The position numbers and the translations under genes are program-made. DNA of 32,000 bases. Origin: Candidatus Omnitrophota bacterium (GTDB lineage Bacteria > Omnitrophota > Gorgyraeia > Zapsychrales > JANLHA01). The stretch is taken from NCBI GenBank assembly GCA_963662715.1, contig OY759724.1, forward strand, positions 2,400,001 to 2,432,000. The letters are read 5' to 3'. Shown here one piece after another: positions 2,551 to 29,593 of the stretch. The notes under the pieces were generated by a model, which made no database searches, was not told the origin of the DNA, and was given only the letters and a program-made list of their open reading frames with translations. The first letter of the stretch is position 1, and the number at the start of each line of letters is the position of its first letter.

Positions 2551-2835
2551 GCGGTGTCGGTGTTGATTTTCTTGAAAGTAAACTTTGTAAAAGTGTTGGG
2601 ATGGGAAAAGCATAAATTTTCAATATTGTCCCTGATTTTTGTGTTATTTTTCCTGTGCGGCTGCGCAACGATAGCCGATTTAATTTGTTCCAAAATATCC
2701 CGGTAATTTGAAATAAGAAAAAAATGGATTAAGCCTCAATAGCCTTCATTGAGAATAGTTTGAAAAACCCCTCCCTTAACGCAGTTTTCATAACCCCGTA
2801 AACCAAATTATTAATTGCCAACGATAGGAGGGGGT

Positions 2836-3501
2836 ATGTTCAAATTCGGATTGCGGTGTCTGTTGTTATGTTTCTGGTTCTTTTCTTCCTGTCCTTCTGC
2901 CCGGGCTTTGATTATCATTAATGAATTCCTTGCTGATCCTCCCGGCGGTTTGTCCGGAGACGCCAATGCAGACGGGACGGGGTCCACTTCGCAGGATGAA
3001 TTTGTGGAATTATTCAACACGTCCGACACGTCTGTGGACATTTCGGGCTGGACGTTATCGGACGAATACAAGGTCAGGCATGTTTTTCCGGCCGGTTCGG
3101 TGATCCTTGCCCATGAGCTTTTTATTGTTTTCGGGGGCGGGAGCCCGGCCGGTCTGGATTATCTTTGGCAGGTGGCTTCGACCGGTGCTTTGGGGCTCAA
3201 CAATAGCGGAGATGTCCTTGTCCTCAGTGATGATCTGGATCAGGTGATGACCGAAGTGAGTTACGGCGCCGAAGCGAATTCGGATCAGTCCCTGGTTCGC
3301 GACCCGGAAACAGACCCGGATGCCGGGTTTGTTCAGCATACGCAGTTGGCTGATGCTTCGGGGCTGCTATTTTCTCCGGGGTTTTTAGTCTCGGGCTCCT
3401 CAGGCCGGGCCGTTGTCCCGGAACCGTTGTCGCTTTTTTGCCTGGGGTGGGGGATGTCCTTTTCTCTGTGGCAGCGGAGAAAATTGGGGTTGCCCGGATG
3501 A
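2836..3501 (+). CDS. Lamin-tail-domain (LTD) protein with C-terminal PEP-CTERM sorting signal
   Basis: The ATG at 2836 follows a GGAGGGGG SD, whereas the track ORF starts at 2815. It has a signal peptide FGLRCLLLCFWFFSSCPSARA and an LTD-type block LIINEFLADPPG...DEFVELFNTSDTSVDISGWTLSD. The C-terminus has VPEP, a hydrophobic span and then QRRK, which is the PEP-CTERM pattern. Confidence 0.85.
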   Translation: MFKFGLRCLLLCFWFFSSCPSARALIIINEFLADPPGGLSGDANADGTGSTSQDEFVELFNTSDTSVDISGWTLSDEYKVRHVFPAGSVILAHELFIVFGGGSPAGLDYLWQVASTGALGLNNSGDVLVLSDDLDQVMTEVSYGAEANSDQSLVRDPETDPDAGFVQHTQLADASGLLFSPGFLVSGSSGRAVVPEPLSLFCLGWGMSFSLWQRRKLGLPG

Positions 3502-3591: not shown

Positions 3592-3646
3592 ATGGGAGAA
3601 AGTGATAATTAATATAAATATATTTTTAAAAAACAGAAAATATGCC

Positions 3647-4102
3647 ATGTTAAAAAGACTATTTGAAAAAATTTTCCCTTGGAACAAAGATTCAAAGGTT
3701 GATTATTCAAACAAAAGGGTTTTGGTGGTTGATGACGGTGAGGTTGAACGGAAGTTTATTGAACATGCCCTGCAGGCGTTCGGCTTTGAAGTTGTCACGA
3801 CTGAAGACGGCTTCCAGGGCTTGAACTATGCCAAGAAGCACAAGTTTGACCTGATCATCCTCGACTATTATATGCCCAAAATAAACGGTAAGGCCGTTTG
3901 TAAAAGCTTAAAGGATGATCCCGAAACCAGGGATGTACCGGTTATTTTTCTAACCGGAAGCGCATCTCCCAAAGATATTATTGAATGTTATGAAGTCGGG
4001 GCGGAATATTTTCTGACCAAGCCCATCAGCGCCGGCCAGCTCACGAAACAGGTTAAAGCCATTTTCCATGATCTGCAGACAGATTTGTCCCCTGCCGATT
4101 AA
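3647..4102 (+). CDS. Stand-alone response-regulator receiver protein
   Basis: Receiver motifs RVLVVDDGEVE, DLIILDYYMPKING and AEYFLTKP. The start is ambiguous between GTG 3602 in the track and ATG 3647; neither has a good SD. Confidence 0.85.
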   Translation: MLKRLFEKIFPWNKDSKVDYSNKRVLVVDDGEVERKFIEHALQAFGFEVVTTEDGFQGLNYAKKHKFDLIILDYYMPKINGKAVCKSLKDDPETRDVPVIFLTGSASPKDIIECYEVGAEYFLTKPISAGQLTKQVKAIFHDLQTDLSPAD

Positions 4103-5413: not shown

Positions 5414-5998
5414 ATGGTGGGAGTTGTCAAATTTACTGTTGCTGTTATTCTTTTACCTTTAATCTATGCCGCGACGCAGGGCTACACTGATGAAATGGCC
5501 CGCAGCAAGTCTTTGGCCGAATTTTTCTGGCGGGGGGTTTTTGCTTATACGTTTTGGCATCTGTTTGTTTTTACCTTTGCCCGTCTTTTCGATTTTATTC
5601 AGAAGATATTCTCCGAGCTTTTTCGTTTTTCAGCGGTTGTCCAGTCGGTCGTCCCGAACAGCATCCCTTTCGGGCCGACGATGCTGCTTATCCTGTATTA
5701 TCTTTGTTCGCATATCTTCCGTTTCAAGGGAGGGGAACCGGTTGTTTTCTTCCTGGCAGGGTTTTCTCTGGCGGTGCATGTTATATTAATGGCGGCCCAG
5801 CTGTATGAGGAAGATCAGACTGTCGTGAAGTCCCATTATTTCTTTTCCCTCGGCCTGTTCTACCTCGCCAACCTGATGCTAGTCTCGATGCTGCTGGATT
5901 TGAATTTCGAGAGCTTTTCATTCATCCGGTTTTGGCAGCAATCGGCTGATCTTACCCTGCATCATTACAAGTACATCCTTCACAAGTTCATCCTTTGA
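5414..5998 (+). CDS. Polytopic membrane protein, unknown function
   Basis: 194 aa with about five hydrophobic spans. Starts 18 nt after serS. No recognisable catalytic motif. Confidence 0.55.
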   Translation: MVGVVKFTVAVILLPLIYAATQGYTDEMARSKSLAEFFWRGVFAYTFWHLFVFTFARLFDFIQKIFSELFRFSAVVQSVVPNSIPFGPTMLLILYYLCSHIFRFKGGEPVVFFLAGFSLAVHVILMAAQLYEEDQTVVKSHYFFSLGLFYLANLMLVSMLLDLNFESFSFIRFWQQSADLTLHHYKYILHKFIL

Positions 5999-6048
5999 GT
6001 TCCGGGAATTTAAAGGCCGGAGCCGGCGGGGAGGACGGGAATTAAGTC

Positions 6049-6077
6049 TTGTCCCCCCGGAGGGGATATACTATAAT
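6049..6077 (+). promoter_or_regulatory. Candidate sigma70-type promoter (TTGTCC-N17-TATAAT)
   Basis: TTGTCC at 6049-6054, a 17-nt spacer, then a consensus TATAAT at 6072-6077. The first ATG of the giant ORF (6088) lies 11 nt after the -10 element. Confidence 0.35.
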
Positions 6078-6087
6078 TATTAGTACT

Positions 6088-9000
6088 ATGATTATAAAGT
6101 ATATCAAGAAAAGTCAGCCCCGGAGACGTTTTTATGCCCTTTTTGCCGTTGTTATGCTGGCGTGCCGTCTTTTTATCCCCGTAAACCTGAGCTATGCCCA
6201 AACAGTCTTAAGCCTGCCTGAACCCGGCTCAAGGGTTTCTCTGTCTTCGGAATATGTCCCGGTGCTTTTAAAAGGGTTGAAGCTTTATCCCAATCCTTTT
6301 CAATTTGATTTTATTATGGATACAGGGCATTCGGAATTGGAAGGGGCAGAGCTTCGTCAGGAATCAACGACGCTGATCAAATATTTCCTCGCGGCTTTAA
6401 CCATCCCGGAGAAAGAGCTCTGGGTGAACCTTTCTCCTTTTGAGAAGGAGCGGATCATCCCGGAATCTTTCGGGGCCACGGAAATGGGGCGGGATCTGCT
6501 GGCCCAGGACTATTTGTTAAAACAATTAACCGCTTCTTTGATGAATCCCGAAGAGGACCTTGGACAAAAGTTCTGGGACAGGATTTATCAGAAAGCCTTT
6601 GAGCTTTACGGCACAACAAGTATTCCGGTGAACACCTTCAATAAGATATGGATCATCCCGGAAGAGGCTTTGGTTTATTCTGAAAATGATGCTGTGTTTA
6701 TCATAAAAGGCCGTCTGAAAGTCCTGCTGGAACAGGATTATCTGGCTATGCAGGAGGTCGTCGACAGTTCTATCGGCATAGCTCTTAAGATTCAGAATAA
6801 ACAGGACCCTGTTACGAAAAAACTGCACGAGGATACGGTCGATATCGTGCGGGATTTAATTGTTCCCGAAATTGAAAAGGAAGTGAATGAGGGGAAAAAT
6901 TTCGCCAAGCTCAGGCAGATTTTTCACGCTGTCATTTTAGCCAAATGGTATAAGCAGAATTTGCAGGAGAATATTCTAAATAAGAAATATGCGGACCAGC
7001 GCAAGACAGACGGCGTCGAAGTCGATGATAAAGAGATCAAGGATAAGATTTATCAGCAGTATCTCGCGGCATTCCGGAAGGGGGTCTATAACCTCATTAA
7101 AGAGGACTACGACCCCAACGAGCGGAAAATGGTCCCCCGCAAGTATTTCCTCGGCGGGTCTTCGATGATCGTTACCCTTAAGGAGACAAAGAACAGCGCC
7201 TCCCTGCAGGAGGCGGAAAACATCCGTTTGATCAGGGTTTCAAGCGCCGTGGGGTTGCCGAACGGGATAGTGGCGGAAGCCGGAAGGTCTTTGGTGTCTT
7301 CTCCTGTGGACGGACCTCCGGCAGAACTTAGGCCGTTCGGGGATAAAGTGTCTGAGGAAGAATTGAAGCTGTCCGCTTTCCTGCGTGATATGTACGGTGT
7401 TTTATCCGGGATGGCGGCTCAGGTGGAAGAGTTTGTCTCGGTCACGCAAAAGGCGGAACTTCTTCCTAAAACATTTGAGGATTTTGATGCCCGGCTGTCT
7501 GATGCCTGGACAAAGATGATGACCCGGATTGGGCAGCTGTTGAATGATGACGGGATCAAATATGATATTTTCATCAAGAATGCCGTAACGCACAGATTTC
7601 AGTATTCCCGGCTTATGGAATCCCTGACCGGGTATAAGGGCCTGTATAAAGACGGAAAAATTTCCGGTGACCGCGCAGCTTTTATACAGGCTCTTGCGGA
7701 TGTTCAGGACACGCTGGCCCTTTTAAAAATACAGGTCCAGAACCTCGGGACGGAGTTGCACGAAGGCCGTTTCAGTAAAACCTCTGCAGGAAGAATTCAG
7801 CAGGTTCAGGTTGTTCTTGACGAACTGCAAAAGGGACAGGCTTATGTCGATGATGTGAAAGCCCTGCTGGCGGCCATGAATAAGAATCTCCGTCTGTTGG
7901 AGAATTTACTCAATCAGCAGACCCCGTTGTGGTCAAGTATCCAGAATCTGAAACAGCAGATTGAAACACAGCAGCATCAGCTGGTTGAGCTGGGGGAAAC
8001 CCTGGATGCTGCGGCGTTGTCGGAGGGCTTCTATATTTACCAGCCGGATGTGGATCTTGCCAGACGGTTTGACCTGCTGGACGGCGCGATGAGGAAACTT
8101 TCGGAAACTTTGGAAAAACGGGAGAGCTTTAACCCGATCTTTGCCAGATATTCTTTGCAGTCTATGCGGGGCACCCTGGTCATTTTAGCCGGGGATAATG
8201 CCGTTTTAGAGCAGAAGATTCAGTCCAGTATGGAATGGTTCCTGAAGAAAGGAGAGGGCTCACCGGTGTCCTCCCCTGTTCCCGAGGAGCCGCCGGCGGC
8301 GGACGCAGCCCGGATAACAGAAACACTGGTTACGTTCTTTATTTCAAAATCGCGGGGTTTTCTGGATATCCTCCGTTCCGAGACCGGCCGCCTCACGCAA
8401 TGGGGCGACACCCGTCCGTTCCCTAAGACCCTGCAGGAGATTTATCAGCGGATCGATATGTACTATGAAGAAATATTCTTGGCGGAAATCGAAATATTGA
8501 GAGATTCAACGGTCGGGGGAAACCGGAAGCTCGTTGACGGCATTAATGAGCTTGAACTGCTGATTTTTTCCGCAAGGGCGCAGCTTGATAAATGGAAAGA
8601 TGAGGCTGTATCTGTGAGAACGGTTGATGCCGGACTCCTGCAGGAACGCCGGACGATTCTTGAGAATGAGATCTCTGGGTTTGAAGAAGCGTTGAGCCAG
8701 TTTGAGGCGGATTTTAAACTGGGCGTTTATACCGCAGATGCCGAGAACCAGGAACGGCCCGCGGCATTGATGACCGGATTTTTGGAACAGGCCAAACAGA
8801 CATTAACGGAATTTGAAACAATTTTAACCCGTTTGCGCCGGGATGTTCAAGAGACCGTTATGCTGGAATCAGCCAAAGTGTCGGAATACCGCAGACTTCA
8901 GACGGCTTATAAGATGCTGGACCGGATGAAAGAAGAGCTCATTGCTCATGACGCGATGAAGTCTTTTGGCGAAGCCAGGGAATTGCTGGGCAGTATAAAT

Positions 9001-10707
9001 TTTGATGCCCTGGCGTTTTATCTCATGGCCATGAACCGGCCGTTTTTTCATCCTCTGACCATGGAGCCTGAGGAACAAAACCGGAAGATCGTGGAAGGGG
9101 CCGGGAGGATACTGGAGGAGATCCCGCCATTGCGCAGGCAGGTTCTGCAGTTGGAACAGGAAGTGCGGGAAGGGCTGCTGGAGAAATCCGGACGGGAACA
9201 GCCGTCGTCTCCCATAGAGCCGCCGGGAACATCTGCCGGACTTTCCGGTGAACGGGATGCCGTGCTGAGCATCATCCCCGAAGCTGCTCAGGGAAGAGCT
9301 GAAATTGCGGATTATATTTTGAAGGAATTCGGCGCTGAGTGGAAGGTGGCTTTCTCCATGATAGGCAAGCATTTGCTTGACCGTTCCCGCTGGCCCTTTA
9401 TCAGCCGGCTGAGAGCGGAAGGGTTTCCCATAGAAGTTATGAGCGACTTATTGTATTCCCGCTCAGATTTGTTTATCGTCCCTCTGGAGAATTTTCCGGA
9501 AGAGTATGTCGATTTTATCCTTCAGCACAGCAAGAGCCGGCGAGGTTTTCACCGGGGGCAGTTCCGGGATATCTGGGCGTTTTACTCTTTGTTGCAGGAG
9601 AGGCAGGGCAACCCGGTTGAAGGTATTTTTGCTAAAATGGCCCAGCAGACTTTAAAAAGGGAGGGGAATATTCACCGGCAGATTATGAAAGAAATTTTGG
9701 GGGAAACGGATCTCCCGGGGCCGGACATGTCTTTAAAGAAATATATCGAAACAGCCCTTACGAGACTCAATCAGTATGTCATGCAGGGGACTGTGGATTA
9801 CGTGTGGGCGTGGCGCTATGTGGGATTCTTCCGGATGGGGCGTATGAAGACACCTCACAGATTCATAACCATCCCCAGCGTCACTTCACTTGATGCCGGA
9901 CAGGCGAAGCAGGTTTCTTTCAGCGTGTCGAATGCCCGGGGTGTTTACGGTCTTGATGAAAGTTTGAACATCTGGGTTTCGGATCAGGAGCTTATCCGTG
10001 CGTTAACTCCTTATATCGGCAAAGATGACCGTCCGAGAGAGCCGGATGACCCGATCCTTCTGGGCTCTATTGGGTACAATTTCGCGGCCGATGAGTCCGG
10101 CGCCCGTGCCGTGAGGGTTAAATTTTCGCAGCCCTGGCTCAGGCTTAATGACAGGATGCCCGCGGAATTGAGAAACAACGGTCTCCTGCGCTCGGCACAG
10201 GCGGTCCTGGAAGAGGCTCTTGAGATATATTTGAAAGAGCAGGGCGTCCGGAAGATACAAAGGGAAATCGGGGCGACTACAATAGACCAGGTTGAGGACG
10301 CGGTTTTAATTCACAGGAATACCGTGCAGAGGCTTAATCAAAATATGATGGACCGCGGTTATCAGTTAACGCTGTCACGGTATGGCCGGAATCCGTTGGC
10401 TTTCGGCAAGCGGTTAGCTTTGTGGGAATTTGAAAAGGACCTGCAGCCGGAAAGTTCCGGAGAAGTCTCATCGCCGGTGACAGCGGCGGATGCCCCCGGC
10501 GGTATCGACCTGAATCCGTCCTATTTGAATCTTAGAACAGAGGGAGGAGTTATTGATATCCCTGTCTTTCAGAATACCGACCAGCTTATGAATATCAATA
10601 TCCAGGGATTAACGCCCTACATTCTTAATATCACTCCCATTCAAAACCTGCCTTTAATTTTAGGCGCCGAGCGGAAGAAGGACAGTGGCCTTTTAAGCCG
10701 TCTTTGA
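6088..10707 (+). CDS. Giant secreted modular protein, mostly helical, with SSP[VI] linkers and a C-terminal GGIDLNP tail
   Basis: One uninterrupted frame of 1539 aa from ATG 6088; the track ORF starts at TTG 6049. It has a signal peptide KKSQPRRRFYALFAVVMLACRLFIPVNLSYA. The N-terminal domain of about 350 aa carries LWVNLSPFEKERIIPESFGATEMGRDLLAQDYLLKQLTASL and EKEVNEGKNFAKLRQIF. Four SSPV/SSPI linkers and a C-terminal APGGIDLNP...ILNITPIQNLPLILG tail are present. No named family was recognised. Confidence 0.85.
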   Translation: MIIKYIKKSQPRRRFYALFAVVMLACRLFIPVNLSYAQTVLSLPEPGSRVSLSSEYVPVLLKGLKLYPNPFQFDFIMDTGHSELEGAELRQESTTLIKYFLAALTIPEKELWVNLSPFEKERIIPESFGATEMGRDLLAQDYLLKQLTASLMNPEEDLGQKFWDRIYQKAFELYGTTSIPVNTFNKIWIIPEEALVYSENDAVFIIKGRLKVLLEQDYLAMQEVVDSSIGIALKIQNKQDPVTKKLHEDTVDIVRDLIVPEIEKEVNEGKNFAKLRQIFHAVILAKWYKQNLQENILNKKYADQRKTDGVEVDDKEIKDKIYQQYLAAFRKGVYNLIKEDYDPNERKMVPRKYFLGGSSMIVTLKETKNSASLQEAENIRLIRVSSAVGLPNGIVAEAGRSLVSSPVDGPPAELRPFGDKVSEEELKLSAFLRDMYGVLSGMAAQVEEFVSVTQKAELLPKTFEDFDARLSDAWTKMMTRIGQLLNDDGIKYDIFIKNAVTHRFQYSRLMESLTGYKGLYKDGKISGDRAAFIQALADVQDTLALLKIQVQNLGTELHEGRFSKTSAGRIQQVQVVLDELQKGQAYVDDVKALLAAMNKNLRLLENLLNQQTPLWSSIQNLKQQIETQQHQLVELGETLDAAALSEGFYIYQPDVDLARRFDLLDGAMRKLSETLEKRESFNPIFARYSLQSMRGTLVILAGDNAVLEQKIQSSMEWFLKKGEGSPVSSPVPEEPPAADAARITETLVTFFISKSRGFLDILRSETGRLTQWGDTRPFPKTLQEIYQRIDMYYEEIFLAEIEILRDSTVGGNRKLVDGINELELLIFSARAQLDKWKDEAVSVRTVDAGLLQERRTILENEISGFEEALSQFEADFKLGVYTADAENQERPAALMTGFLEQAKQTLTEFETILTRLRRDVQETVMLESAKVSEYRRLQTAYKMLDRMKEELIAHDAMKSFGEARELLGSINFDALAFYLMAMNRPFFHPLTMEPEEQNRKIVEGAGRILEEIPPLRRQVLQLEQEVREGLLEKSGREQPSSPIEPPGTSAGLSGERDAVLSIIPEAAQGRAEIADYILKEFGAEWKVAFSMIGKHLLDRSRWPFISRLRAEGFPIEVMSDLLYSRSDLFIVPLENFPEEYVDFILQHSKSRRGFHRGQFRDIWAFYSLLQERQGNPVEGIFAKMAQQTLKREGNIHRQIMKEILGETDLPGPDMSLKKYIETALTRLNQYVMQGTVDYVWAWRYVGFFRMGRMKTPHRFITIPSVTSLDAGQAKQVSFSVSNARGVYGLDESLNIWVSDQELIRALTPYIGKDDRPREPDDPILLGSIGYNFAADESGARAVRVKFSQPWLRLNDRMPAELRNNGLLRSAQAVLEEALEIYLKEQGVRKIQREIGATTIDQVEDAVLIHRNTVQRLNQNMMDRGYQLTLSRYGRNPLAFGKRLALWEFEKDLQPESSGEVSSPVTAADAPGGIDLNPSYLNLRTEGGVIDIPVFQNTDQLMNINIQGLTPYILNITPIQNLPLILGAERKKDSGLLSRL

Positions 10708-10787: not shown

Positions 10788-10877
10788 GTGGATACATGTT
10801 TTATGATCCGTCCGGTCTGCCGTCGGATTGGGAAGGTGTTTGTTCCCGGTCCGGTGCCTGTATGAGTGAATAAACTT

Positions 10878-12014
10878 ATGAATCATGGTAACGTAACGGT
10901 TATAAGTTCTTTGCCTCCGATTGTCGGATTAAGTCCGTATACAAAAGCATTCGTTACGGAGTTGTCGAAAAGAATTTCCGTAACTTTTTTGGGGTTTAAA
11001 CATATTTATCCGGCGTTCCTGTATCCCGGGAAAATATATGATGAAAGTGCGGAGATCTTGTCAGAACACCCGCATTTGAGAATCCGCAACGTCCTGAATT
11101 GGTACAATCCTTTCGGGTGGCTGGTTGAGGCTTTTCGGATCAAGACAGATATCATTCATGCCCAGTGGTGGAGCTTTCCTCTGGCTCCGGTTTATATCAC
11201 CATCCTGGGAATAAACAAATTGCGGGGTAAAAAGATTGTTTTGACCATTCACAATGTTCTGCCTCATGAAAAGAGTTTCTTAAAAATTTTTCTGAATAAG
11301 TCCGTCTATTTTTTAGGGGATGAATTTATTGTTCATACGAAGCAGAATAAAGAAGACCTGGCGAAAATCATTAAAACAAAAAAAATTCACGTTATCCCGC
11401 ATGGTTTAGTGCACACCCCGCTTAAAGGGATGAGCAAAGAGCAGGCCCGGGAAGGATTGAAAATCTGTGAAACGGATAAAGTTCTTCTGTGTTTTGGTCA
11501 TATCCGGGACTATAAGGGGCTTGACGTCGCTATAAGGGCGTTGTCTTTGATAAAAGATCCTTCGGTGAAATTGATCATTGCCGGCAGATGCTGGGAAGAC
11601 TGGTCAAAGTATGAACAATTAATAGAACAGCTTGATTTAAAAGAGAGGGTTATTCTTAAAGTCGGTTTTATCCCGACCGATCAGATTGAACCTGTTTTCA
11701 GGGCCTCTGACCTGGTTTTACTGCCTTATAAGCATTTTAATTCTCAAAGCGGGGTCGGGGCGCTGGTTTTGCCGTTTGAAATCCCTCTGATTGTCGCAAG
11801 AACAGGAGGGCTTCCTGAGTATGTCAAGCGTGAGGACTGCGTCATTGAACCCAATCATCACGAGGAGCTTGCCGCCAAGATTCAGAATATATTGTTGAAT
11901 AAAGAATTGTATGAACAGTTAAAAAAGGATATCCTGACGCAGAAAGCAGAATTGAGCTGGGAGGCGATTGCCGAAAAGACTGTTACCGTTTATGGTGAGG
12001 GGCGCCATTCATGA
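10878..12014 (+). CDS. Glycosyltransferase, GT4 family (Glycos_transf_1 type)
   Basis: GT-B features: the C-terminal half has LLCFGHIRDYKGLDVAIRAL, KLIIAGR and SQSGVGALVLPFEIPLIVARTGGLPEYV, an EX7E-like region. The start is ATG 10878 or GTG 10866. Confidence 0.9.
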   Translation: MNHGNVTVISSLPPIVGLSPYTKAFVTELSKRISVTFLGFKHIYPAFLYPGKIYDESAEILSEHPHLRIRNVLNWYNPFGWLVEAFRIKTDIIHAQWWSFPLAPVYITILGINKLRGKKIVLTIHNVLPHEKSFLKIFLNKSVYFLGDEFIVHTKQNKEDLAKIIKTKKIHVIPHGLVHTPLKGMSKEQAREGLKICETDKVLLCFGHIRDYKGLDVAIRALSLIKDPSVKLIIAGRCWEDWSKYEQLIEQLDLKERVILKVGFIPTDQIEPVFRASDLVLLPYKHFNSQSGVGALVLPFEIPLIVARTGGLPEYVKREDCVIEPNHHEELAAKIQNILLNKELYEQLKKDILTQKAELSWEAIAEKTVTVYGEGRHS

Positions 12015-13135
12015 AGTTTATAGATTTGCATAGACAATATAAGCAATATCAGCAGGAGATTGATGCTCAGATTTCGGACGTTATTGAGAATACGGCTTTC
12101 ATCATGGGGCCCAAAATAGCAGAGCTTGAAGAATTGCTTGCTCATAACGCGGGGGTCAAGTATGCCGTCGCGTGCTCTTCCGGAACAGATGCGTTGTTGC
12201 TGGCGTTAATGGCGTATGATATCCGCCCGGGGGATGAAATTATAACAACGACTTTTTCGTTTATAGCAACAGCGGAAGTGGTTGCGTTCTTAAAAGCCAC
12301 TCCGGTTTTTGTTGATGTTGACCCGGAGACTTATAATATTGATCCGGAAAGAATAAAAAATGCTGTGACGGAAAAAACCCGGGGCATTATTGCCGTTGAT
12401 ATCTTCGGGCAGTGTGCGGATTATGACGCCATTAATGCTGTCGCCAAAGAAAATAATTTGTTTGTTATTGAAGATGCTGCGCAGTCTTTCGGCGCAAGAT
12501 ATAAAGACCGGCCGGCCTGCTCCTTAAGCGGTATGGCCTGCACGTCGTTTTTTCCGGCCAAGCCTCTGGGCTGCTACGGAGACGGCGGAATGGTTTTTAC
12601 GGATGACGCAGAAAAGGCCGGCCTTATGAACTCATTCAGAGGGCATGGTCAAGGAACTCATAGATACGACCATGTAAGAATCGGCCTGAATGCCAGATTG
12701 GATGCTTTGCAGGCGGCTGTATTGCTTGCCAAATTTCCTCGTTTTTCTGCGGAAATCACCGCCAGAAACAGATTGGCAGACTATTACAATGAAAACCTGG
12801 ATAAGAAAATAAAAACCCCGGTTGTTTTGGATCATAACCTTTCTACCTATGCCCAGTATTCTATCCGGGTTGCCCTCCGCGATGAACTGCAGGTCTGGTT
12901 GAAAGACAAGGGGATCCCTTCCGCCATCCATTACCCGAAACCTCTTCATCTTCAGCCTGCATTCAGTTATTTGAATTATGCGGCAGGGGATTGTCCTGTT
13001 GCCGAGAATATCTGTGAGAATATTATTTCATTGCCCATGCACCCGTTTTTAACGGATGAAGAGATGGATCTGATTATTCATACCGTTAACGATTTTATTG
13101 AAAAACACCCGCTCTCTGATTCTGTCCCGTCTTGA
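12011..13135 (+). CDS. DegT/DnrJ/EryC1/StrS-family PLP-dependent sugar aminotransferase
   Basis: 374 aa with blocks GPKIAELEE, SGTDALLLAL, FSFIATAE, EDAAQSFGA and SFFPAKPLGCYGDGGMVFT (the PLP lysine). The start overlaps the GT4 stop by 4 nt. Confidence 0.92.
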   Translation: MKFIDLHRQYKQYQQEIDAQISDVIENTAFIMGPKIAELEELLAHNAGVKYAVACSSGTDALLLALMAYDIRPGDEIITTTFSFIATAEVVAFLKATPVFVDVDPETYNIDPERIKNAVTEKTRGIIAVDIFGQCADYDAINAVAKENNLFVIEDAAQSFGARYKDRPACSLSGMACTSFFPAKPLGCYGDGGMVFTDDAEKAGLMNSFRGHGQGTHRYDHVRIGLNARLDALQAAVLLAKFPRFSAEITARNRLADYYNENLDKKIKTPVVLDHNLSTYAQYSIRVALRDELQVWLKDKGIPSAIHYPKPLHLQPAFSYLNYAAGDCPVAENICENIISLPMHPFLTDEEMDLIIHTVNDFIEKHPLSDSVPS

Positions 13136-13160
13136 CAGGACGGGTTTTTACGGGCATAAT
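13126..13160 (+). promoter_or_regulatory. Hairpin with T-tract overlapping a TTGACA-N17-CATAAT promoter-like element
   Basis: CCCGTC (13126-13131) pairs with GACGGG (13139-13144), followed by TTTTT. TTGACA at 13132-13137 contains the aminotransferase stop codon; a 17-nt spacer leads to CATAAT at 13155-13160. Confidence 0.4.
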
Positions 13161-13254
13161 AGAAACTCTTTTAAATGGAAAGGGGATAGTCATCGGAGAT
13201 CCTTCGTCCGGAGAGTATGTCGCGGGGGTGAGGGGGTTCCGGGAGACAGCAGAA

Positions 13255-14244
13255 ATGAATATACTTGTTACCGGCGCGACCGGTTATGTCGGCCGCGCAC
13301 TGATTCCTCAATTATGTCAGGCAGGGCACAGCATCCGTATCCTGGCCCGGAAAACCAGTGATCTCAGCGCTTTTAAGGAATGCCGGAAGGCTCTGGAGGT
13401 CTTTTACGGTGATCTGCTTCAGGAAGAGACCCTCCGCGGCATAGGGGAGAATATCGACTATGTCTGTCATCTCGCAGGAGTGCTTCCCTATAGTCAAACA
13501 AAGGCCGAACATTATTATGACGTCAACAAGACAGGAAGCCTTAATTTGATAAAACAATTCGCCGGCAGCCGCGTAAAGAATTTCCTTTTCACGACCTCAA
13601 CCGCTTCTTTGGGAGCGATATCGAAAGATATCGTTACTGAGAATGATTTCAGTCCTCCGATCGCCGATTACGGGAAATCCAAGTATGCCGCGGAACTCGC
13701 CATAAGAGAATTTGCGGAAAAACAGGCCATCCCGTATACAATGGCCCGTTTAACGCATATTTACGGGCCCGGAGAAACCCGGGACCTTTACCGTATGGTC
13801 AAAATGATGAAAAAGGGCATTTTCCCGCAGATCGGGTTCAAACCGAATCTTTATCCGGCTGTTTATATCGACGATGCCGTTAACGGGATTATCAGGGTGT
13901 TGGAACGCGGCCGGCCAGGGGAAACCTATATTATTACGGATAAAGAGTCGCATGATACGCGTCTGATCCGGAAGTATGTCCTGCAATATCTGAGCCTCAA
14001 GAAATCCTTGTATCCTTTCTTGCCCAAATATTTATCCTTACTCATTTTTTCGATACTCGATATAATATCTGATATGAGCGGGGTCAAGTTTCCGGCCACC
14101 AGGAAAAACATCCAGTTCCTGAGTGCCGGCAGAAGGTTCAGCATTGAAAAGGCCCGGAAGGAACTGGGATATGTCCCGCAAGTCCCGTTAAAAGAAGGCT
14201 TGAGAAAAACCATAGAATATTATCTTCAGGAGGGATTAATATGA
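13255..14244 (+). CDS. NAD-dependent epimerase/dehydratase (extended SDR)
   Basis: The ATG at 13255 gives MNILVTGATGYVGRAL, placing the Rossmann GxxGxxG at the N-terminus. The catalytic YGKSK (YxxxK) motif is present. The track ORF starts at TTG 13132, but those 41 extra residues have no SDR counterpart. Confidence 0.85.
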   Translation: MNILVTGATGYVGRALIPQLCQAGHSIRILARKTSDLSAFKECRKALEVFYGDLLQEETLRGIGENIDYVCHLAGVLPYSQTKAEHYYDVNKTGSLNLIKQFAGSRVKNFLFTTSTASLGAISKDIVTENDFSPPIADYGKSKYAAELAIREFAEKQAIPYTMARLTHIYGPGETRDLYRMVKMMKKGIFPQIGFKPNLYPAVYIDDAVNGIIRVLERGRPGETYIITDKESHDTRLIRKYVLQYLSLKKSLYPFLPKYLSLLIFSILDIISDMSGVKFPATRKNIQFLSAGRRFSIEKARKELGYVPQVPLKEGLRKTIEYYLQEGLI

Positions 14245-15047
14245 GCGACCAGCCGGTAGAGCGTGATGTGGAAGTTGAAGGCTTTGGGGTTTCCTATGAT
14301 CGTCAGGTTGTTTTTTTTCATCAGCATATTTTGACCCGGGAGCTGAATCTGAAAACCATCCTCGAAATGCCTTCCAAGGGGGATAAGGCGGAATCTTCCA
14401 TTTATTCCATTGGCTTTGCCAAGGCGGGGTGCGACGTTACGGTTGCCAATTTTGAGGAAAGGACCAGGAAATACTGGCAGGAACTGGATATCGAGCAGCA
14501 TCTAAAAACCAGGGATGTGGCGGATTATGCGAAGACGGATTTCCCCGATAATGAATTTGATCTGACCTGGAACTACTGCACCTTTGCCGGCCTGCCGGAC
14601 AAAGACGCTTATATTCAAGAGATGATGCGTGTGAGTAAAAAGTATGTTTTGTTGCTCTGCGGCAACAATTTTCAGTTAGGTTATGTGATTCACAAGGCTG
14701 TTCATTTCCTTTACAAATTTCCTTGGACTCACGGAGACACTCATTACACGTTTCTGGGAAATGTCAGGGACCTGCTCACCCGCAACGGCCTTAAGATAAA
14801 AGAATGCGGGACCATTGATTCGCCGCCGTGGCCGTCGCCTGTCGGTTTCAGGGACGTCAGGCTTCATAAAAAAGGCATCAGCAAAACAAATTATCTTTGG
14901 GAGGTCCCGAGCATCCGGTACATGAAGAGCGGACAATTCCCTCTTTGGATGAACCTTATCCGGTTTTATGATATCCCCCTGCGGAAAGGGTACTGGAAAT
15001 TGCCTTTTTCACATATGTTTTATTTAATCGGGGAGAAGCAGGCATAG
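14241..15047 (+). CDS. Class-I methyltransferase-fold-like protein with degenerate SAM loop
   Basis: 268 aa. The order of elements resembles a Rossmann-type methyltransferase: ILEMPSKGD, CDVTVANFEE, FDLTWNYCTF, KYVLLLC. The GxGxG motif is absent. The start overlaps the SDR stop by 4 nt. Confidence 0.5.
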   Translation: MSDQPVERDVEVEGFGVSYDRQVVFFHQHILTRELNLKTILEMPSKGDKAESSIYSIGFAKAGCDVTVANFEERTRKYWQELDIEQHLKTRDVADYAKTDFPDNEFDLTWNYCTFAGLPDKDAYIQEMMRVSKKYVLLLCGNNFQLGYVIHKAVHFLYKFPWTHGDTHYTFLGNVRDLLTRNGLKIKECGTIDSPPWPSPVGFRDVRLHKKGISKTNYLWEVPSIRYMKSGQFPLWMNLIRFYDIPLRKGYWKLPFSHMFYLIGEKQA

Positions 15048-15053
15048 ATTAAA

Positions 15054-16199
15054 ATGAAACTTACGGATTTTCTTACGGAAATATTCCCGAAGACGCTTAA
15101 TTATCGTCTGGCCCGGATGGGCCTTCTCAAGCCCGTCCGCCCGGTCACTCTGACATATTCCGTGACCGGGGCCTGTAATTCGCTCTGTAAAACCTGCGCG
15201 ATCGGGGAAATGTGCCGGAAAGACCCGCAGCGTCTTAAGCAGGACTTGACGTTAGATGAAATTGAAAAAATCTTTAAGTCCATCGGACATGTTTATTTTT
15301 TTAATGTCAGCGGAGGAGAGCCTTTTTTAAGAAAAGACCTGTTTGAGATCGTCGCGTTGGCCTGTAAATATCTGACGCCCCGCATTGTGCATGTCCCCAC
15401 AAATGCTATCCTTTCCCAGCGGATTTATGACGACTCTAAGCGTATCCTGGACTTTCTGAAGCAGGATTTTCCTCAGGTTCAGTTCTCGGTAAAGCCCTCC
15501 ATTGACGGAGTGGGGGATCGGCATGACGAAATCCGCGGCGTGCCGGGCAATTTTAAAAAGCTGGAAAAGACCATTTCCCTGCTCAAAGAGCTTGAGAAAG
15601 ATTATCCTAATTTCCACCTGGAGCTGGGAACTGTTATTTCGCAGTTCAACATTCATCACCTGGATGAAATTGAAAATTATGTCCATTCTGCCGGTATACA
15701 GAGTTACCGTAATGAAATCGCTGAACAGCGGGAAGAATTTTATAATATCGGCGACCCGATTACCCCTTCCGGGGAGGATTATGAGCGGCTGATGAAGAGG
15801 TTTAAAGAGAAAGTTAAGGAGAATATCAAGGGGAAAAAGAGATTGGCCCAGGTCACGGAAGCCCTGCGGCTGACCTATTATGATATCGCCGTTAGGATCA
15901 TGAAAGAAAAAAGACAGGTGATCCCTTGTTATGCCGGTATATCCAATGTCCACCTGAATTATGACGGCCAACTCTGGCCGTGCTGTGTTCTGGGCTATGC
16001 CAAACCGCTGGGGAATCTGCGGGAGACCGGGTATGATTTTGATAGGATCTGGTTTTCCGAAAGGGCCAAGGCCGTAAGAACGTCTATCCGCAACAAAGAG
16101 TGCGCCTGTCCTTTGGCCAATCAGGCCTATTCCAATATCCTCTGTCATGCGCCTTCCATCATCAAATCCCTCAAACATCTGCTGACTTTAAAGAGATAG
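15054..16199 (+). CDS. Radical SAM enzyme with SPASM/twitch-like C-terminal Cys motifs
   Basis: CNSLCKTC (CX3CX2C) near the N-terminus and a VSGGEPFL SAM-binding block. The C-terminal CYAGISNVHLNYDGQLWPC fits CX9-15GX4C, followed by CC and CAC...C. Confidence 0.9.
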   Translation: MKLTDFLTEIFPKTLNYRLARMGLLKPVRPVTLTYSVTGACNSLCKTCAIGEMCRKDPQRLKQDLTLDEIEKIFKSIGHVYFFNVSGGEPFLRKDLFEIVALACKYLTPRIVHVPTNAILSQRIYDDSKRILDFLKQDFPQVQFSVKPSIDGVGDRHDEIRGVPGNFKKLEKTISLLKELEKDYPNFHLELGTVISQFNIHHLDEIENYVHSAGIQSYRNEIAEQREEFYNIGDPITPSGEDYERLMKRFKEKVKENIKGKKRLAQVTEALRLTYYDIAVRIMKEKRQVIPCYAGISNVHLNYDGQLWPCCVLGYAKPLGNLRETGYDFDRIWFSERAKAVRTSIRNKECACPLANQAYSNILCHAPSIIKSLKHLLTLKR

Positions 16200-16284
16200 C
16201 CGACAGCCTGTTTTCGGTAGAAAATTGGCGGAAACGAAAAAAAATGAGCGCTCCTTTGTCATGATTGGGAATAAGGCAGCATGT

Positions 16285-16321
16285 AACCTCTTTTCATTTT
16301 TAGGTTTAAAGGGGTTTTTTT
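16285..16321 (+). terminator. Rho-independent terminator candidate
   Basis: AACCTCTTT (16285-16293) pairs with AAAGGGGTT (16308-16316), giving 9 bp including one G-U pair. The loop is 14 nt and a T-run follows to 16321. Lies 86 nt after the radical SAM stop. Confidence 0.45.
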
Positions 16322-16371
16322 GTCCGGCCGATAACCGGTTCTTTCTCTTCAGTATGTTGTAAATATATTTA

Positions 16372-16400
16372 TTGACAATGGTTTATGAATTTGCTACCAT
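16372..16400 (+). promoter_or_regulatory. Candidate promoter (TTGACA-N17-TACCAT)
   Basis: A consensus -35 at 16372-16377, a 17-nt spacer and a 4/6 match -10 at 16395-16400. It would give a leader of about 210 nt before the GT2 gene. Confidence 0.35.
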
Positions 16401-16613
16401 TATTATTTCGGCTTGTAGCCTGTCTTTAGGGCCATAGAAAGGGGCCAGGTAAGATCACGTGCCGGGAACAAGTCCCTGTATAAAGATTCGATGCCCCTGG
16501 CTTATAAGCATATTTCATGATATACACAATATTATATATAGCCGGCAGGTTGAGCGCGCGCAATGTCCAGGGGAGTCTATTTTTAACATAATCTACGATA
16601 AGGTTTTGGCCAA

Positions 16614-17597
16614 ATGAGTGAAATCATGTTTTCTGTTGTCATCCCGTTATACAATAAAGAGGCTTATATTAAGAGGACGATCGATTCTGTCCTGGAGCAG
16701 TCCTGCCGGAATTTCGAGTTGATTGTTGTTGATGACGGCTCTACGGATAAGAGTCATGAAAAAGTCCGGGAATACACCGATGAACGTATCCGTTTGATCC
16801 GGCGGGAAAACGGGGGGGAATGCGCGGCAAGGAATACAGGGATTGAGTCTGCGAAGTACCCGTATCTCGCTTTCCTGGATGCTGATGATAAATGGACCCC
16901 CGATTTCCTTGCGACGGTCCTGCAGCTTATTGAAAAATATCCGGAGGCGGGCGCTTATGTCACTTCCATGGACAAGGTGAACGTGCGGGGGGAGCGAAAA
17001 AGGCGGAAGATACACGGTGTTCCCACGGAGAAAACCGGGGACGGATTGATCGAAAATTTTTTCAAAAGTATCGCTTATGGGTTGCCGCCTATTATGCCGA
17101 GTTGTGTGTGTATCCCCAAGCGTGTTTTTGATGAAGTCGGGACATTTCCGGCCGGCGTCAAGAGGAACGGTGAGACAGAGGTTTGGTTAAAGGTGGCATT
17201 AAAGTACCCCGTGGCCTATAGCCCGAAGGTATGCGCTGTCTATCACCGGGATGTTGATGACAGCATTTGCAATAAATACCTTCCGGCTAAAATTCCGTTT
17301 GAAAAGATCATCCTTGATGCGATTGCCCAGGGGAAGATCGATAAAGAATCCGAGATTTATGCCCTGGAATTACTGGCCAAGATGAACCATATCTATGCGG
17401 GAAGGTATTTGATGGCCAATAAAACAGAACTGGCCCGCGACTGGCTAGGGAGGGTCAAGACGATCCGTATTTTATTGAAGATCAAAGTCTTCGCGTTATA
17501 CGTTCTGTCATATTTGCCGTATCCTTTCATTAAATGGGTCGGCTTCCATTTCGGGGATATGAAGGCCGAATTTGAGGAAATGGAGACTTTGCCATAA
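16614..17597 (+). CDS. Glycosyltransferase, GT2 family
   Basis: FSVVIPLYNKEAYIKRTIDSVLEQS, ELIVVDDGSTD and AFLDADD (the DXD motif) are typical of the GT-A fold. Confidence 0.9.
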   Translation: MSEIMFSVVIPLYNKEAYIKRTIDSVLEQSCRNFELIVVDDGSTDKSHEKVREYTDERIRLIRRENGGECAARNTGIESAKYPYLAFLDADDKWTPDFLATVLQLIEKYPEAGAYVTSMDKVNVRGERKRRKIHGVPTEKTGDGLIENFFKSIAYGLPPIMPSCVCIPKRVFDEVGTFPAGVKRNGETEVWLKVALKYPVAYSPKVCAVYHRDVDDSICNKYLPAKIPFEKIILDAIAQGKIDKESEIYALELLAKMNHIYAGRYLMANKTELARDWLGRVKTIRILLKIKVFALYVLSYLPYPFIKWVGFHFGDMKAEFEEMETLP

Positions 17598-17679
17598 CGT
17601 TATTTGTTGTCAGTTGCTCGGGACGGGATGTCCTGGTCCGAACACCGGGAGCGGACAGGGGGAAGATACCTGGTCTTTA

Positions 17680-19146
17680 ATGAATAAGAAAATACTAACA
17701 AATACTTTTTTTTATACAATTGTAACTTTTTTACCGCTGACCTTGAACTATTTTGTGTTGCCGTTCTTGACCCGGTATATGTCGGCGGCTGATTTTGGAA
17801 TTGTTTCTTTGGTCGGATCCCTGGTTAGCTTTTTGACGGTCCTTTTCGGGCTGCAAATGCATTCAGGCGTCAATAGGTTGATTTTTGATTATAAAGGAGA
17901 CGATAGAAAAAGTTATTTTTCCTCCCTGTTCTGGGCCATCACCCTGGTTTCCTTCCTTTTTTTGGCCATTTTTTTTGCAAGCGGAAATTTCTTGCGTAAA
18001 ATTCTTTTCTATAAAAACGATCTGGGCTTCTATCCCTACCTTTTCATCGCCGGTTTAAAAATTTTCTTTGCATTGCCCCTTTTGGTGACCCACCGTTTCT
18101 TTCGGGTCCTCGAGAAAGCCAAAATACTGGTCGTCATAACGTTTCTGACATCCACATTCAGTGTCGCGGTCACCCTGCTTTTTGTGATTCATTACAGGTT
18201 AGGGGCGACGGGTGCGTTGTCGGGGATTTTGGCCGGCACGGTCCTGACCTACCTTTGTCATCTGTATCACTTCCGTAAAATGCTGGTTTTGAAGTTCGAT
18301 AAGGATATGTTTCTGGAAAATCTGAAGTTCGGAATTCCTGCCATCCCGCATGGATTGGGAGGCTATTTATTCTTGTTCTCCGATAGAATCATTTTGGAGA
18401 AATTCGTGCCCCTGTCCGTGATTGGCGTCTATTCTATAGCCGATACATTTTCAATATTGTTGAAGCATATCGTCAATTCTTTTGACTTGTCGATACGGCC
18501 GATATTTATGAAGAAATGCCTGGGCTCGATTTCTGACGGGGTTGATTTTGCCCAGAGAATGTCCAGAGTTTGGTTTATTGGGCTGGGAGCGGCATATTTT
18601 GCAATATGTTTTTTCGGTGAGCTGATAATTAAACTCATGACCCCGCAGGAATTCCACGGCGCCGTTAACCTGCTGCCCATCCTGGCGTTGTGCTATGTTT
18701 TAAGAGGCATTTATATTTTTCCCCTCTATACATTTTATTTTCAGAAAAAAACGAAATACCTGTCTGCCATCACATTGCCGAGCGGCTTGCTTAACATCAT
18801 ATTCAATTTCATTCTAATCCCCTTAATCGGGGTCTACGGGGCCGCCCTGACCACTCTGGGGAGTTTTGTCTTTAATCTGACTTTTGCCAGGATCTACAGT
18901 AAGAACACCTTCAGGATCAACTTTTCTCCGCAGTCGATTTTAGCCCTTGTGCTCTTATGCGCTTTTACGATCATTCCGCATTGGATCATCCCGTTTGATA
19001 ATCTCGCTCTCCGCATGGTTCTGAAGCTTGCGATGTTCTTGTCAATAATATTCGTGATGTTGGCGTTAGATATCGGAGGAATAAGAGGGATGTTTAAAAA
19101 AATATTTCTCAAGGGGTCGTTGTTATTTACGGCCAGGGGGTGTTGA
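17680..19146 (+). CDS. wzx: Wzx-like polysaccharide/oligosaccharide flippase (polysaccharide biosynthesis protein family)
   Basis: From ATG 17680 the protein is 488 aa with about 12-14 hydrophobic spans, an architecture typical of Wzx/MOP exporters. The 36 residues upstream in the track ORF are non-hydrophobic and overlap the GT2 end. Confidence 0.75.
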   Translation: MNKKILTNTFFYTIVTFLPLTLNYFVLPFLTRYMSAADFGIVSLVGSLVSFLTVLFGLQMHSGVNRLIFDYKGDDRKSYFSSLFWAITLVSFLFLAIFFASGNFLRKILFYKNDLGFYPYLFIAGLKIFFALPLLVTHRFFRVLEKAKILVVITFLTSTFSVAVTLLFVIHYRLGATGALSGILAGTVLTYLCHLYHFRKMLVLKFDKDMFLENLKFGIPAIPHGLGGYLFLFSDRIILEKFVPLSVIGVYSIADTFSILLKHIVNSFDLSIRPIFMKKCLGSISDGVDFAQRMSRVWFIGLGAAYFAICFFGELIIKLMTPQEFHGAVNLLPILALCYVLRGIYIFPLYTFYFQKKTKYLSAITLPSGLLNIIFNFILIPLIGVYGAALTTLGSFVFNLTFARIYSKNTFRINFSPQSILALVLLCAFTIIPHWIIPFDNLALRMVLKLAMFLSIIFVMLALDIGGIRGMFKKIFLKGSLLFTARGC

Positions 19147-19148
19147 TC

Positions 19149-19898: not shown

Positions 19899-19973
19899 AA
19901 TAGCATGTGATATGTTGGGAGGGTGTTTTATTTTTTGTTTCTAAAATTATAAAGTTTTTAGAGGAGGATTGTC

Positions 19974-22784: not shown

Positions 22785-22817
22785 CTTCGATTTAATTTTA
22801 ACCCGGGAGAATTTTTT

Positions 22818-23621: not shown

Positions 23622-23685
23622 TACTTAGCTGTTCCGGTGATGTTCCGAAATATTAAATCAAAAATCTACTGGCAATTTACTGTAT

Positions 23686-25331: not shown

Positions 25332-25339
25332 ATCTGCTT

Positions 25340-29504: not shown

Positions 29505-29593
29505 GGAGAGGTGGCTGAGCGGTTGAAAGCGGCGGTCTTGAAAACCGTTGTGGGTAACTCCCACCCAGAGTTCGAATCTCTGCCTCTCCGCCA
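29505..29593 (+). tRNA. tRNA-Ser (anticodon UGA), with encoded CCA
   Basis: The cloverleaf was folded by hand. Acceptor stem is GGAGAGG/CCTCTCC. The D arm is GCT...AGC around the AGCGGTTGAA loop. The anticodon stem GCGGT/ACCGT carries the loop CTTGAAA. There is a long variable arm GTGGG-TAACT-CCCAC and a T arm CAGAG-TTCGAAT-CTCTG. The discriminator is G, followed by CCA. Confidence 0.93.

Follow-up and report, generated by a model that had tools for sequence, protein, structure and literature searches.

The gene studied here lies on the forward strand of a 32,000-nucleotide stretch of DNA from a Candidatus Omnitrophota bacterium (GenBank assembly GCA_963662715.1, contig OY759724.1, positions 2,400,001 to 2,432,000; "the window" below means this whole stretch) and runs from an ATG at window position 6088 to position 10707, encoding a protein of 1539 amino acids (aa), the query. 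Our analyses demonstrate that it belongs to an Omnitrophota-restricted protein family with a fixed plan, in which a signal peptide and a conserved N-terminal domain (the N-domain) are followed by interchangeable cargo and by an obligatorily terminal tail. Reading the sequences as a whole, we see an even chance that the two conserved ends would be shared handles for export or assembly, with the tail docking on the N-domain, and that short motifs at the junctions, SSP[VI] in the query, would be processing sites.

Conserved ends and interchangeable cargo

The N-terminal part of the query (its first ~385 residues) is common to 119 of 119 relatives, with 46-72% identity to the query and 43 invariant columns; across the ~320 aa of the N-domain, complete members are 50-77% identical to the query. 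A hidden Markov model (HMM) of the N-domain matches the open reading frame (ORF) of the window at E 2e-152 over model positions 2-319. The single long frame with a cleavable-looking signal peptide, described in an initial annotation made from the DNA letters alone, is present, and the same signal layout recurs across the relatives: a basic n-region, a hydrophobic core and [A/S/V]-x-A↓Q, directly followed by (T/S)-V-L-N-L-P-x-P-G. A strict regular expression finds this pattern in 107 of 120 relatives, the remaining 13 having close variants, and the query conforms to it with NLSYA↓QTVLSLPEPG. For about half of the members the signal peptide is the only hydrophobic segment, and the query, too, has one such segment only.

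At the other end, the tail follows the consensus GGID[LF]NP-x2-L-x-L ... G[FL]-x-P-[VI]-I-[IF]-x-I-x-P-[VI]-x-N-[LI]-P-x-x-L-G. Its HMM matches the window ORF at E 2.1e-22 (ORF positions 1482-1544 of 1553) as well as 119 of the first 120 proteins and 168 of 215 in all; it is terminal in 168 of 168 and never duplicated, and neither the N-domain nor the tail is found internally or in duplicate anywhere in the 215 proteins. Proteins without the tail look truncated, one of them stopping in the middle of the motif at '...KGGID', and a tail without an N-domain was seen in none of the 52 loci checked, except for genes cut by the locus edge and one apparently split gene. In the latter (L017), an ORF at 5887-8802 has an N-domain and no tail and a 280-aa ORF at 8762-9601 has a tail only, probably because of a frameshift, an assembly error or pseudogene formation. 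The N-terminal domain and GGIDLNP terminal motif of the initial annotation are thus real, and according to HMMs and alignments both are common to the relatives.

The family is large. Searching the representatives of 50%-identity clusters with the N-domain (phmmer, E <= 1e-3) gave 7,939 cluster representatives, 6,173 of them at E <= 1e-30. Among the best 150 of the 7,939, the N-domain always lies near the N-terminus, mostly starting at residue 35-60, and the proteins range from about 420 to 5,709 aa, the longest member among the matches listed. The 51 loci taken from species-representative genomes belong to metagenome-assembled genomes titled Omnitrophota or Omnitrophica or else to probable mislabels, and many genomes contribute several loci. 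The initial annotation had mentioned similar N-terminal and GGIDLNP-type segments in Omnitrophota hypothetical proteins, which was correct and, at some 7,900 clusters and 51 loci, greatly understated. Thirteen loci come from entries titled 'uncultured Planctomycetales' (L002, L008, L018, L023, L028, L033, L034, L041, L042, L044, L046, L050 and L051) and one from 'Candidatus Elulimicrobium' (L035); either these labels are wrong or the family reaches slightly past the named Omnitrophota. The family genes are often in tandem (L003, L007, L009, L017, L040, L002, L036), each copy with a different cargo, and at L009 and L040 the spacing between the stop-to-stop ORFs is 4-7 bp.

The cargo of complete members varies from 270 to 4,500 aa. 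In the relatives, Pfam recognizes methyltransferases, HATPase_c, receiver domains, DnaJ and HEAT repeats, a Ser/Thr kinase with PP2C, UbiB, M48 peptidase, PGM, UGPase, starch-synthase-like and ROK domains, as well as radical SAM, NUDIX, GAPDH, PGK, PGI, isocitrate dehydrogenase (IDH) and Glu/Leu dehydrogenase; coiled coils also occur among the cargo. Some of the enzymes are complete: PGK is full-length (369 bits, profile positions 3-379 of 379), as are IDH (260 bits) and GAPDH, the last with GINGFGRIG and the catalytic SCTTN. These GAPDH, PGK and IDH domains (in P0043, P0079 and P0067) sit between the Sec signal and N-domain on one side and the tail on the other, and they are almost free of cysteine save for the GAPDH active-site region.

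The cargo of the query itself consists of three modules, M1 to M3 (Table 1), and its middle region aligns with a single relative, P0002. Scans of the full protein against Pfam, NCBIfam, PADLOC and PHROGs gave nothing meaningful, with no Pfam match at E <= 1; M1 and M2 match nothing in Pfam or among PDB sequences, M1 nothing in PADLOC or PHROGs either, and M3 has no PDB-sequence hit below E 0.5; the composition of M3 suggests a globular domain. PDB sequence searches with the family profile, with M1-M2 and with M3 returned coiled-coil noise or nothing. The initial annotation had pictured three modules, largely helical or coiled-coil, with a hint of duplication between the first two. The shared motif behind that idea, [LF]PKT[FL][EQ][DE][FI], does stand at aa 459 and 778, 55 and 50 residues past the respective linkers, whereas the duplication and the wider picture are marginal: self-BLAST between the query modules finds no similarity even at E <= 10, and hhalign aligns only the first ~85 residues of M1 and M2, at a probability of 5% and E 0.008. 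We did not adopt the duplication.

The interchange of cargo can be followed at one locus. The positional orthologues of the window gene are P0002 (locus L052) and the protein of locus L001; all three genes share the upstream seryl-tRNA synthetase (SerRS) gene and an ORF for a 194-aa membrane protein, and the window and L052 also have in common a downstream cluster of radical-SAM, glycosyltransferase and methyltransferase genes. The products are of very different length, 753 aa in L001, 1539 aa in the query and 2589 aa in P0002, and their layouts are N - moduleX - C in L001, N - M1 - M2 - M3 - C in the query and N - extension - M1 - partial duplicate - M2 - M3 - moduleX - C in P0002. The boundaries of module presence and absence among the three orthologues coincide with SSP[VIL].

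Table 1. Parts of the query protein, with window coordinates and residue numbers counted from the ATG at 6088
Feature	Coordinates	Strand	Residues (aa)	Remarks
Sec-type signal peptide	6088..6198	+	1-37	KKSQPRRR n-region, hydrophobic core, S-Y-A↓Q (aa 35-38); read from sequence
N-domain	6199..7158	+	38-357	family-defining, predicted alpha/beta fold; from relatives, HMM and AlphaFold2 (AF2) model
Linker after N-domain	7159..7296	+	358-403	poorly conserved; coverage by relatives falls sharply, AF2 confidence low
Junction motif 1	7297..7308	+	404	V-SSPV-DGPP; matches ISSPVPG at P0002 position 546
Cargo module M1	7309..8259	+	408-724	rich in Leu, Ala, Gln, Glu; 36% identity to P0002 only
Junction motif 2	8260..8280	+	728	doubled, SPVSSPV (SSPV 8269-8280); aligns with SSPV at 869 and 1534 in P0002
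Cargo module M2	8281..9204	+	732-1039	rich in Glu, Leu, Arg; common to P0002 only
Junction motif 3	9205..9216	+	1040	P-SSPI-EPPG; P0002 has APAPV here
Cargo module M3	9217..10467	+	1044-1460	orphan; 8 Trp; 37% identity to P0002 1846-2273
Junction motif 4	10468..10479	+	1461	V-SSPV; TAADAP (six residues) separates it from the tail
Conserved C-terminal tail	10498..10677	+	1471-1530	GGIDLNPSYLNLRTEGG ... GLTPYILNITPIQNLPLILG
Short charged C-terminal extension	10678..10707	+		follows the tail; ends LLSRL, then stop

Two alternative junction motifs

The coordinates of the SSP[VI] motifs, their differing codons and the spacers DGPP, PEEPP, EPPG and TAADAPGG are exactly as first annotated. In 20,000 shuffles of the query the mean number of SSP[VI] was 0.03 and none reached 3, and the DNA repeats within the gene are short chance-level matches only, the one pair near the motifs being 17 nucleotides (nt) long, 82% identical and placed just after motifs 2 and 3. 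Because the motif count is far above the shuffles and no DNA repeats exceed chance, SSP[VI] is maintained at the protein level; the shuffle statistics and the repeat search agree in this with the initial claim that the motif is not a recent DNA repeat. Homologues were proposed there as the place to look for conservation of the motif positions and the terminal motif: the tail, as said, is found in 119 of 120 proteins, and three of the four motif sites are kept in the positional orthologue P0002 at a background identity of ~36%. Motif 4 corresponds to two sites of P0002, SSPL at 2274 and the region of SSPV 2507, and between these two lies the extra module that is missing from the query.

The motif is a property of the whole family. 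SSP[VIL] is enriched ~13-fold in three samples: it occurs 106 times where 8 are expected, 61 times in an independent set (4.8 expected) and 33 times in the locus ORFs (2.5 expected); its density per 1000 aa is 0.47 in family ORFs and 0.098 in non-family ORFs, a difference of about five times, and 28 of its occurrences in 168 relatives are no more than 35 aa away from the tail. When the 4-mers of 168 cargo regions were ranked in an unbiased scan, SSPV (39x) and SSPI (24x) came out at the top and DAAM (23x) next, the last belonging to a second group of DAAM, DRAM, DQAM, DKAM, DSAM and AMLT. The pattern D-x-A-M-[LMVI] was observed 181 times against 7.2 expected (relatives P0003-P0215; loci L007, L023, L027 and others).

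The two motifs are nearly exclusive between proteins, 41 having SSP[VI] only, 60 DxAM only and 6 both, and they occupy the same three kinds of site, one right behind the N-domain, one immediately preceding an internal cargo domain and one 4-35 residues ahead of the tail. The cargo domains that they directly precede include receiver domains (P0068), PGK (P0079) and GAPDH (P0043). Paralogues within a genome keep to one dialect in 7 of 7 testable genomes, and in the genome of the window all three members seen (the query and, on the same contig, P0050 and P0084) use the SSP dialect. We infer that SSP[VI] and D-x-A-[MVI]-L are two dialects of one junction signal, read by a lineage-specific trans-acting factor. 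Since D-x-A-[MVI]-L needs no hydroxyl residue, a common role in O-glycosylation or phosphorylation would be less likely than one in proteolysis or binding, and the motifs are probably processing sites. Of the roles first suggested for SSP[VI], processing thus stays the best reading, whereas O-glycosylation loses ground with a hydroxyl that is dispensable wherever D-x-A-[MVI]-L replaces the motif.

The tail and its possible docking

The AF2 model of the query N-domain has a mean predicted local distance difference test score (pLDDT) of 73 and a predicted template modelling score of 0.74, and it consists of six long helices and smaller strands, with a long beta-hairpin at aa 187-214 that is amphipathic by consensus. 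Foldseek searches with this model against PDB and BFVD, and with the model of a full-length relative against PDB, gave nothing at E <= 0.001. Near the top of the lists of the two models are ClyA, SmhA, NheA, MakA and MakE, at E 0.2-7.5, probability <= 0.03, template modelling score <= 0.13 and root-mean-square deviation > 20 Å; because these scores are not significant, the resemblance to the ClyA superfamily is a faint lead only.

In a full-length AF2 model of the short relative P0060, the tail has a pLDDT of 60-91 and the linker before it one below 50. The 7-residue strand of the tail (795-801) has a within-tail partner of only 3 residues, and the final beta-hairpin of the N-domain is extended and predicted with more confidence compared with the model of the N-domain by itself. 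The models suggest that the tail probably adds a beta-strand onto the N-domain, either of the same molecule or, head to tail, of the next one. Past the tail, the members extend by a median of 14 aa, and L[ST] falls within the final 7 residues of 61 of 168 members, compared with 8 of 168 control windows; their C-termini often read L-[S/T]-x(1-3), and that of the query is ...GLLSRL.

Evidence on export

Cysteine is nearly absent from the family. It makes up 0.03% of the N-domains, 0.06% of the cargo and 0.11% of the tails against 1.28% of the neighboring non-family ORFs, and the cargo region, with a median of 1,138 aa, has no cysteine at all in 108 of 168 members. The mature query has none in 1,502 residues, whereas the genes of the window with Pfam support have 1.40% (P ~7e-10), and the sole cysteine of the precursor, aa 26, lies inside the signal peptide. 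Acidic residues are more frequent in the family as well, Asp+Glu amounting to 15% against 11%. The near-absence of cysteine supports real export, and the compositional signs of export, as far as sequences can give them, are strong for the family. Together with the module exchange and the signal layout, the cysteine depletion supports the modular exported protein of the initial annotation.

The start codon and the neighboring genes

The start codon is ambiguous: GGAGG stands 13 nt 5' of a TTG at 6049, from which the product would have 1552 aa, and GGAGGGG stands 22 nt 5' of the ATG at 6088. The signal peptide is identical from either start, and the TTG is the one taken in the database entry P0001. 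Directly upstream (5414-5998, + strand) lies the ORF for the 194-aa hydrophobic membrane protein, which has no Pfam match; it is kept in place at the positional orthologues (L001 5206-5790, L052 9212-9796) and found in no other family locus. Upstream of SerRS are the genes of a lamin-tail-domain (LTD) protein (2815-3501, +) and of a stand-alone receiver protein (3602-4102, +), in the same order as in L052.

Downstream of the gene, a cluster at 10866-26662 (+) encodes GT4, a DegT aminotransferase, an epimerase/dehydratase, methyltransferases, radical SAM-SPASM, GT2, a Wzx-like flippase, NeuB, UDP-GlcNAc 2-epimerase, a sulfotransferase, a polysaccharide deacetylase and a CMP-cytidylyltransferase; going by these predicted products, it is a glycan pathway of the nonulosonic-acid type. 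Past it follow an 816-aa membrane protein, weakly YfhO-like (GT-C), at 26701-29151 (-) and a tRNA-Ser gene (anticodon TGA) at 29505-29593 (+).

Proposed mechanism and alternative explanations

In the mechanism that we propose, Sec would carry the protein across the inner membrane, where the two conserved ends would be common handles for one shared machinery or partner, such that hundreds of unrelated cargos could be sorted, anchored or assembled in the envelope or on the cell surface. The tail would dock by beta-strand addition on the N-domain, in cis or head-to-tail in trans. The motifs [V/S/T/A]-S-S-P-[V/I] or D-x-A-[M/V/I]-L, placed in disordered linkers at the junctions between N-domain and cargo, cargo and cargo, and cargo and tail, would be recognized by a trans-acting factor specific to the lineage; the likeliest candidate is an endoprotease, which would free the cargo from the handles in the manner of a polyprotein. 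The member in the window would thus hold three orphan cargo modules between its handles.

Several observations weigh against this mechanism. One of the four motif sites of the query is not conserved in the orthologue, 61 of 168 members carry neither strict motif, many of these having the looser D-x-A-[VI]-L, and the longest members have no SSP[VI] at all. The covariation between N-domain and tail, calculated as mutual information with average product correction, is 0.130 against 0.105 +/- 0.004 in a re-pairing null; because the top pairs are scattered, we read it as showing only co-inheritance of the two ends, not contact. Enzymes that depend on NAD or ATP are hard to rationalize outside the cytoplasm. 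Finally, no dedicated partner gene, such as one for a protease, transporter or chaperone, recurs as a neighbor at the 51 loci, and any machinery would therefore be encoded elsewhere.

A bolder version of the proposal, which we regard as speculative and rather doubtful, would make the N-domain and the tail two halves of an Omnitrophota-specific assembly or secretion system. The tail would be a donor strand inserted into the N-domain of the next protein, and the resulting heteropolymeric chains or coats would display active enzymes outside the cytoplasm or release them by cleavage at SSP[VI]/DxA[MVI]L.

We consider it unlikely that the protein is a structural surface protein, a subunit of an S-layer or fibril that carries O-linked glycans at its SSP[VI] sites, possibly the nonulosonic-acid glycan of the adjacent cluster. 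The gene does stand directly upstream of that ~16-kb cluster (with NeuB, UDP-GlcNAc 2-epimerase, the CMP-transferase, glycosyltransferases and the flippase), and a cluster of radical-SAM, glycosyltransferase and methyltransferase genes is also found 3' of the L052 orthologue; the acidic, cysteine-free composition is typical of S-layer proteins, and the motif is rich in serine and set in proline-rich linkers. However, the family genes are generally not beside glycan clusters, the adjacency being confined to closely related syntenic genomes, and where D-x-A-[MVI]-L stands in for SSP[VI] no Ser or Thr is required. The cargo of the relatives is enzymatic or regulatory, with no repeated lattice-forming domain, and the Pfam scan of the query found no SLH or other S-layer domain. 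The surface fibril or S-layer protein named as a candidate in the initial annotation fits poorly with a family in which only the ends are conserved and the middle is swappable, intact enzymes included.

Improbable to a similar degree is the delivery of effectors to prey or host in the way of MARTX or AB toxins, in which the N-domain and tail would insert into the membrane or translocate, and the cargo would be effectors cleaved free in the target. Predatory and parasitic lifestyles have been reported for Omnitrophota (PMC10066038; PMC12583861), swappable cargo framed by conserved ends and set off by junction motifs resembles the architecture of MARTX, a cysteine-poor composition is common in proteins translocated unfolded, and for two independent models Foldseek places ClyA-superfamily pore formers near the head of its lists. 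The fold matches, however, fall short of significance, as detailed above, and the beta-hairpin is by its consensus amphipathic rather than hydrophobic. Searches of Pfam and NCBIfam found no RTX repeats, cysteine protease domain (CPD) or features of type I secretion (T1SS), and the protein has a Sec signal peptide instead; furthermore, much of the cargo, such as HEAT repeats, coiled coils, PGM and receiver domains, is not obviously toxic.

We find it very unlikely that the N-terminal hydrophobic segment stays uncleaved as a membrane anchor, with most of the protein on the cytoplasmic side as a membrane-tethered scaffold for metabolic and signaling enzymes. Such a scaffold would accommodate the cargo needing cytoplasmic cofactors (GAPDH, PGK, IDH, kinases, receiver domains), and 46% of Omnitrophota proteins of at least 10,000 aa are predicted to be anchored by transmembrane (TM) helices only, with their bulk on the cytoplasmic face (doi 10.64898/2026.06.07.730766). 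Yet the positive charges before the hydrophobic core and the conserved A-x-A↓Q after it indicate the exported orientation, the ~20-fold depletion of cysteine, enzyme cargo included, is unexpected for cytoplasmic proteins, and a scaffold leaves no role for an obligatorily C-terminal tail. The origin of the motifs by chance or from the composition of a low-complexity ORF, or of the ORF as an assembly artefact, for which nothing speaks except the lack of annotated relatives for the cargo modules of this member, we reject as having a negligible probability, refuted as it is by the 20,000 shuffles, by the conservation of the motifs in a positional orthologue of 36% identity, and by an intact ORF with thousands of relatives and conserved synteny.

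Comparison with known systems

The closest context is provided by the long proteins of the same phylum. The two studies of them deal with proteins of at least 10,000 aa, classed by Pfam content, dockerins, C39/S8 peptidases and TM helices (doi 10.1101/2023.11.21.568195; doi 10.64898/2026.06.07.730766), and West-Roberts et al. proposed that long Omnitrophota proteins are cleaved, without candidate cleavage points (doi 10.1101/2023.11.21.568195). Signal peptides are common in the giants as in our family, and methyltransferase, HATPase_c, receiver, PGM, starch-synthase-like, ROK, radical SAM, NUDIX and HEAT domains are shared as cargo (doi 10.64898/2026.06.07.730766). In contrast to the giant ORFs, which reach tens of thousands of aa and have many TM helices, the query has 1,539 aa, no Pfam domain and a single hydrophobic segment, and the dockerin/TSP3, CAZyme and C39/S8 domains of the giants are absent from it. 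In both studies, the descriptions of the giants are silent on the two conserved ends, on the near-absence of cysteine and on the junction motifs, and in the literature that we searched, these two papers among it, we found no description of the N-domain or the tail.

Among secretion systems, the cargo proteins of the type IX secretion system (T9SS) are similar in having a Sec signal, diverse passengers including enzymes, and an obligatorily C-terminal element of 60-90 aa in many paralogues per genome. They lack a conserved N-terminal domain, however, and the query has no match to the models of T9SS C-terminal domains in Pfam or NCBIfam, nor is the family tail predicted to form a full beta-sandwich as in those domains. 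The T9SS belongs to Bacteroidota. In TpsA proteins, a conserved domain of ~250-300 aa comes right after the signal peptide and before a long variable region, as in our family, and acts as a secretion handle; TpsA has no conserved C-terminal tail, and the family N-domain is, unlike the two-partner secretion domain, predicted to be mixed alpha/beta with long helices and not a beta-helix, and it has no match to Haemagg_act in Pfam. The beta-barrel of classical autotransporters is likewise lacking, the query being without a Pfam match and the tail comprising ~60 aa with 2-3 short strands. MARTX toxins share with the family the conserved ends, the mosaic modules exchanged between orthologues and the short sites in disordered linkers, where cleavage sets the MARTX effectors free, but they use T1SS, have no Sec signal and contain glycine-rich repeats and an internal CPD, features that Pfam and NCBIfam did not detect in the query; the resemblance is one of architecture only.

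The strand-exchange pili, of the chaperone-usher type and of type V in Bacteroidia, are comparable in their Sec-exported subunits and in having conserved motifs beside both interacting parts, and the terminal peptide PVIINITPV of the family, with its alternating hydrophobics, would by prediction supply a strand to a conserved domain as theirs does. In the type V pili of Bacteroidia, proteolysis opens the groove that the C-terminal donor strand then fills. The query nevertheless has no sequence or fold similarity to pilins in Pfam or Foldseek, and the cargo of the family, at 270-4,500 aa, is unlike that of a pilin; polymerization of the family proteins is purely hypothetical. Because the features tested for membership in the known systems are missing and the descriptions of the giants are without the bookend domains, we place the family outside all known kinds, with a function that we infer from sequence alone.

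Significance

Omnitrophota are widespread, uncultivated, often ultra-small and suspected of predation or parasitism, and their long multi-enzyme proteins are an acknowledged puzzle. With ~7,900 clusters and several copies per genome, the family described here is a major unannotated part of their proteomes, and its fixed handles around swappable cargo are the first candidate for an organizing principle. The two junction motifs are concrete candidates that can be searched for in existing proteomes. With HMMs for the N-domain and the tail, thousands of proteins now called 'hypothetical' could be annotated, and the motifs would split long proteins into parts for structure prediction.

In some members, cysteine-free GAPDH, PGK and IDH that look catalytically intact stand behind Sec signals; they call into question where central metabolism takes place in these cells or else hint at an effector-like use of metabolic enzymes. 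Should the donor-strand version of the proposal prove true, the family would be a non-covalent counterpart of the giant multi-enzyme proteins of the phylum, and the enzymes placed outside the cytoplasm would include a cysteine-free glycolytic set, which would point to an extracytoplasmic or prey-directed central metabolism in these nanobacteria.

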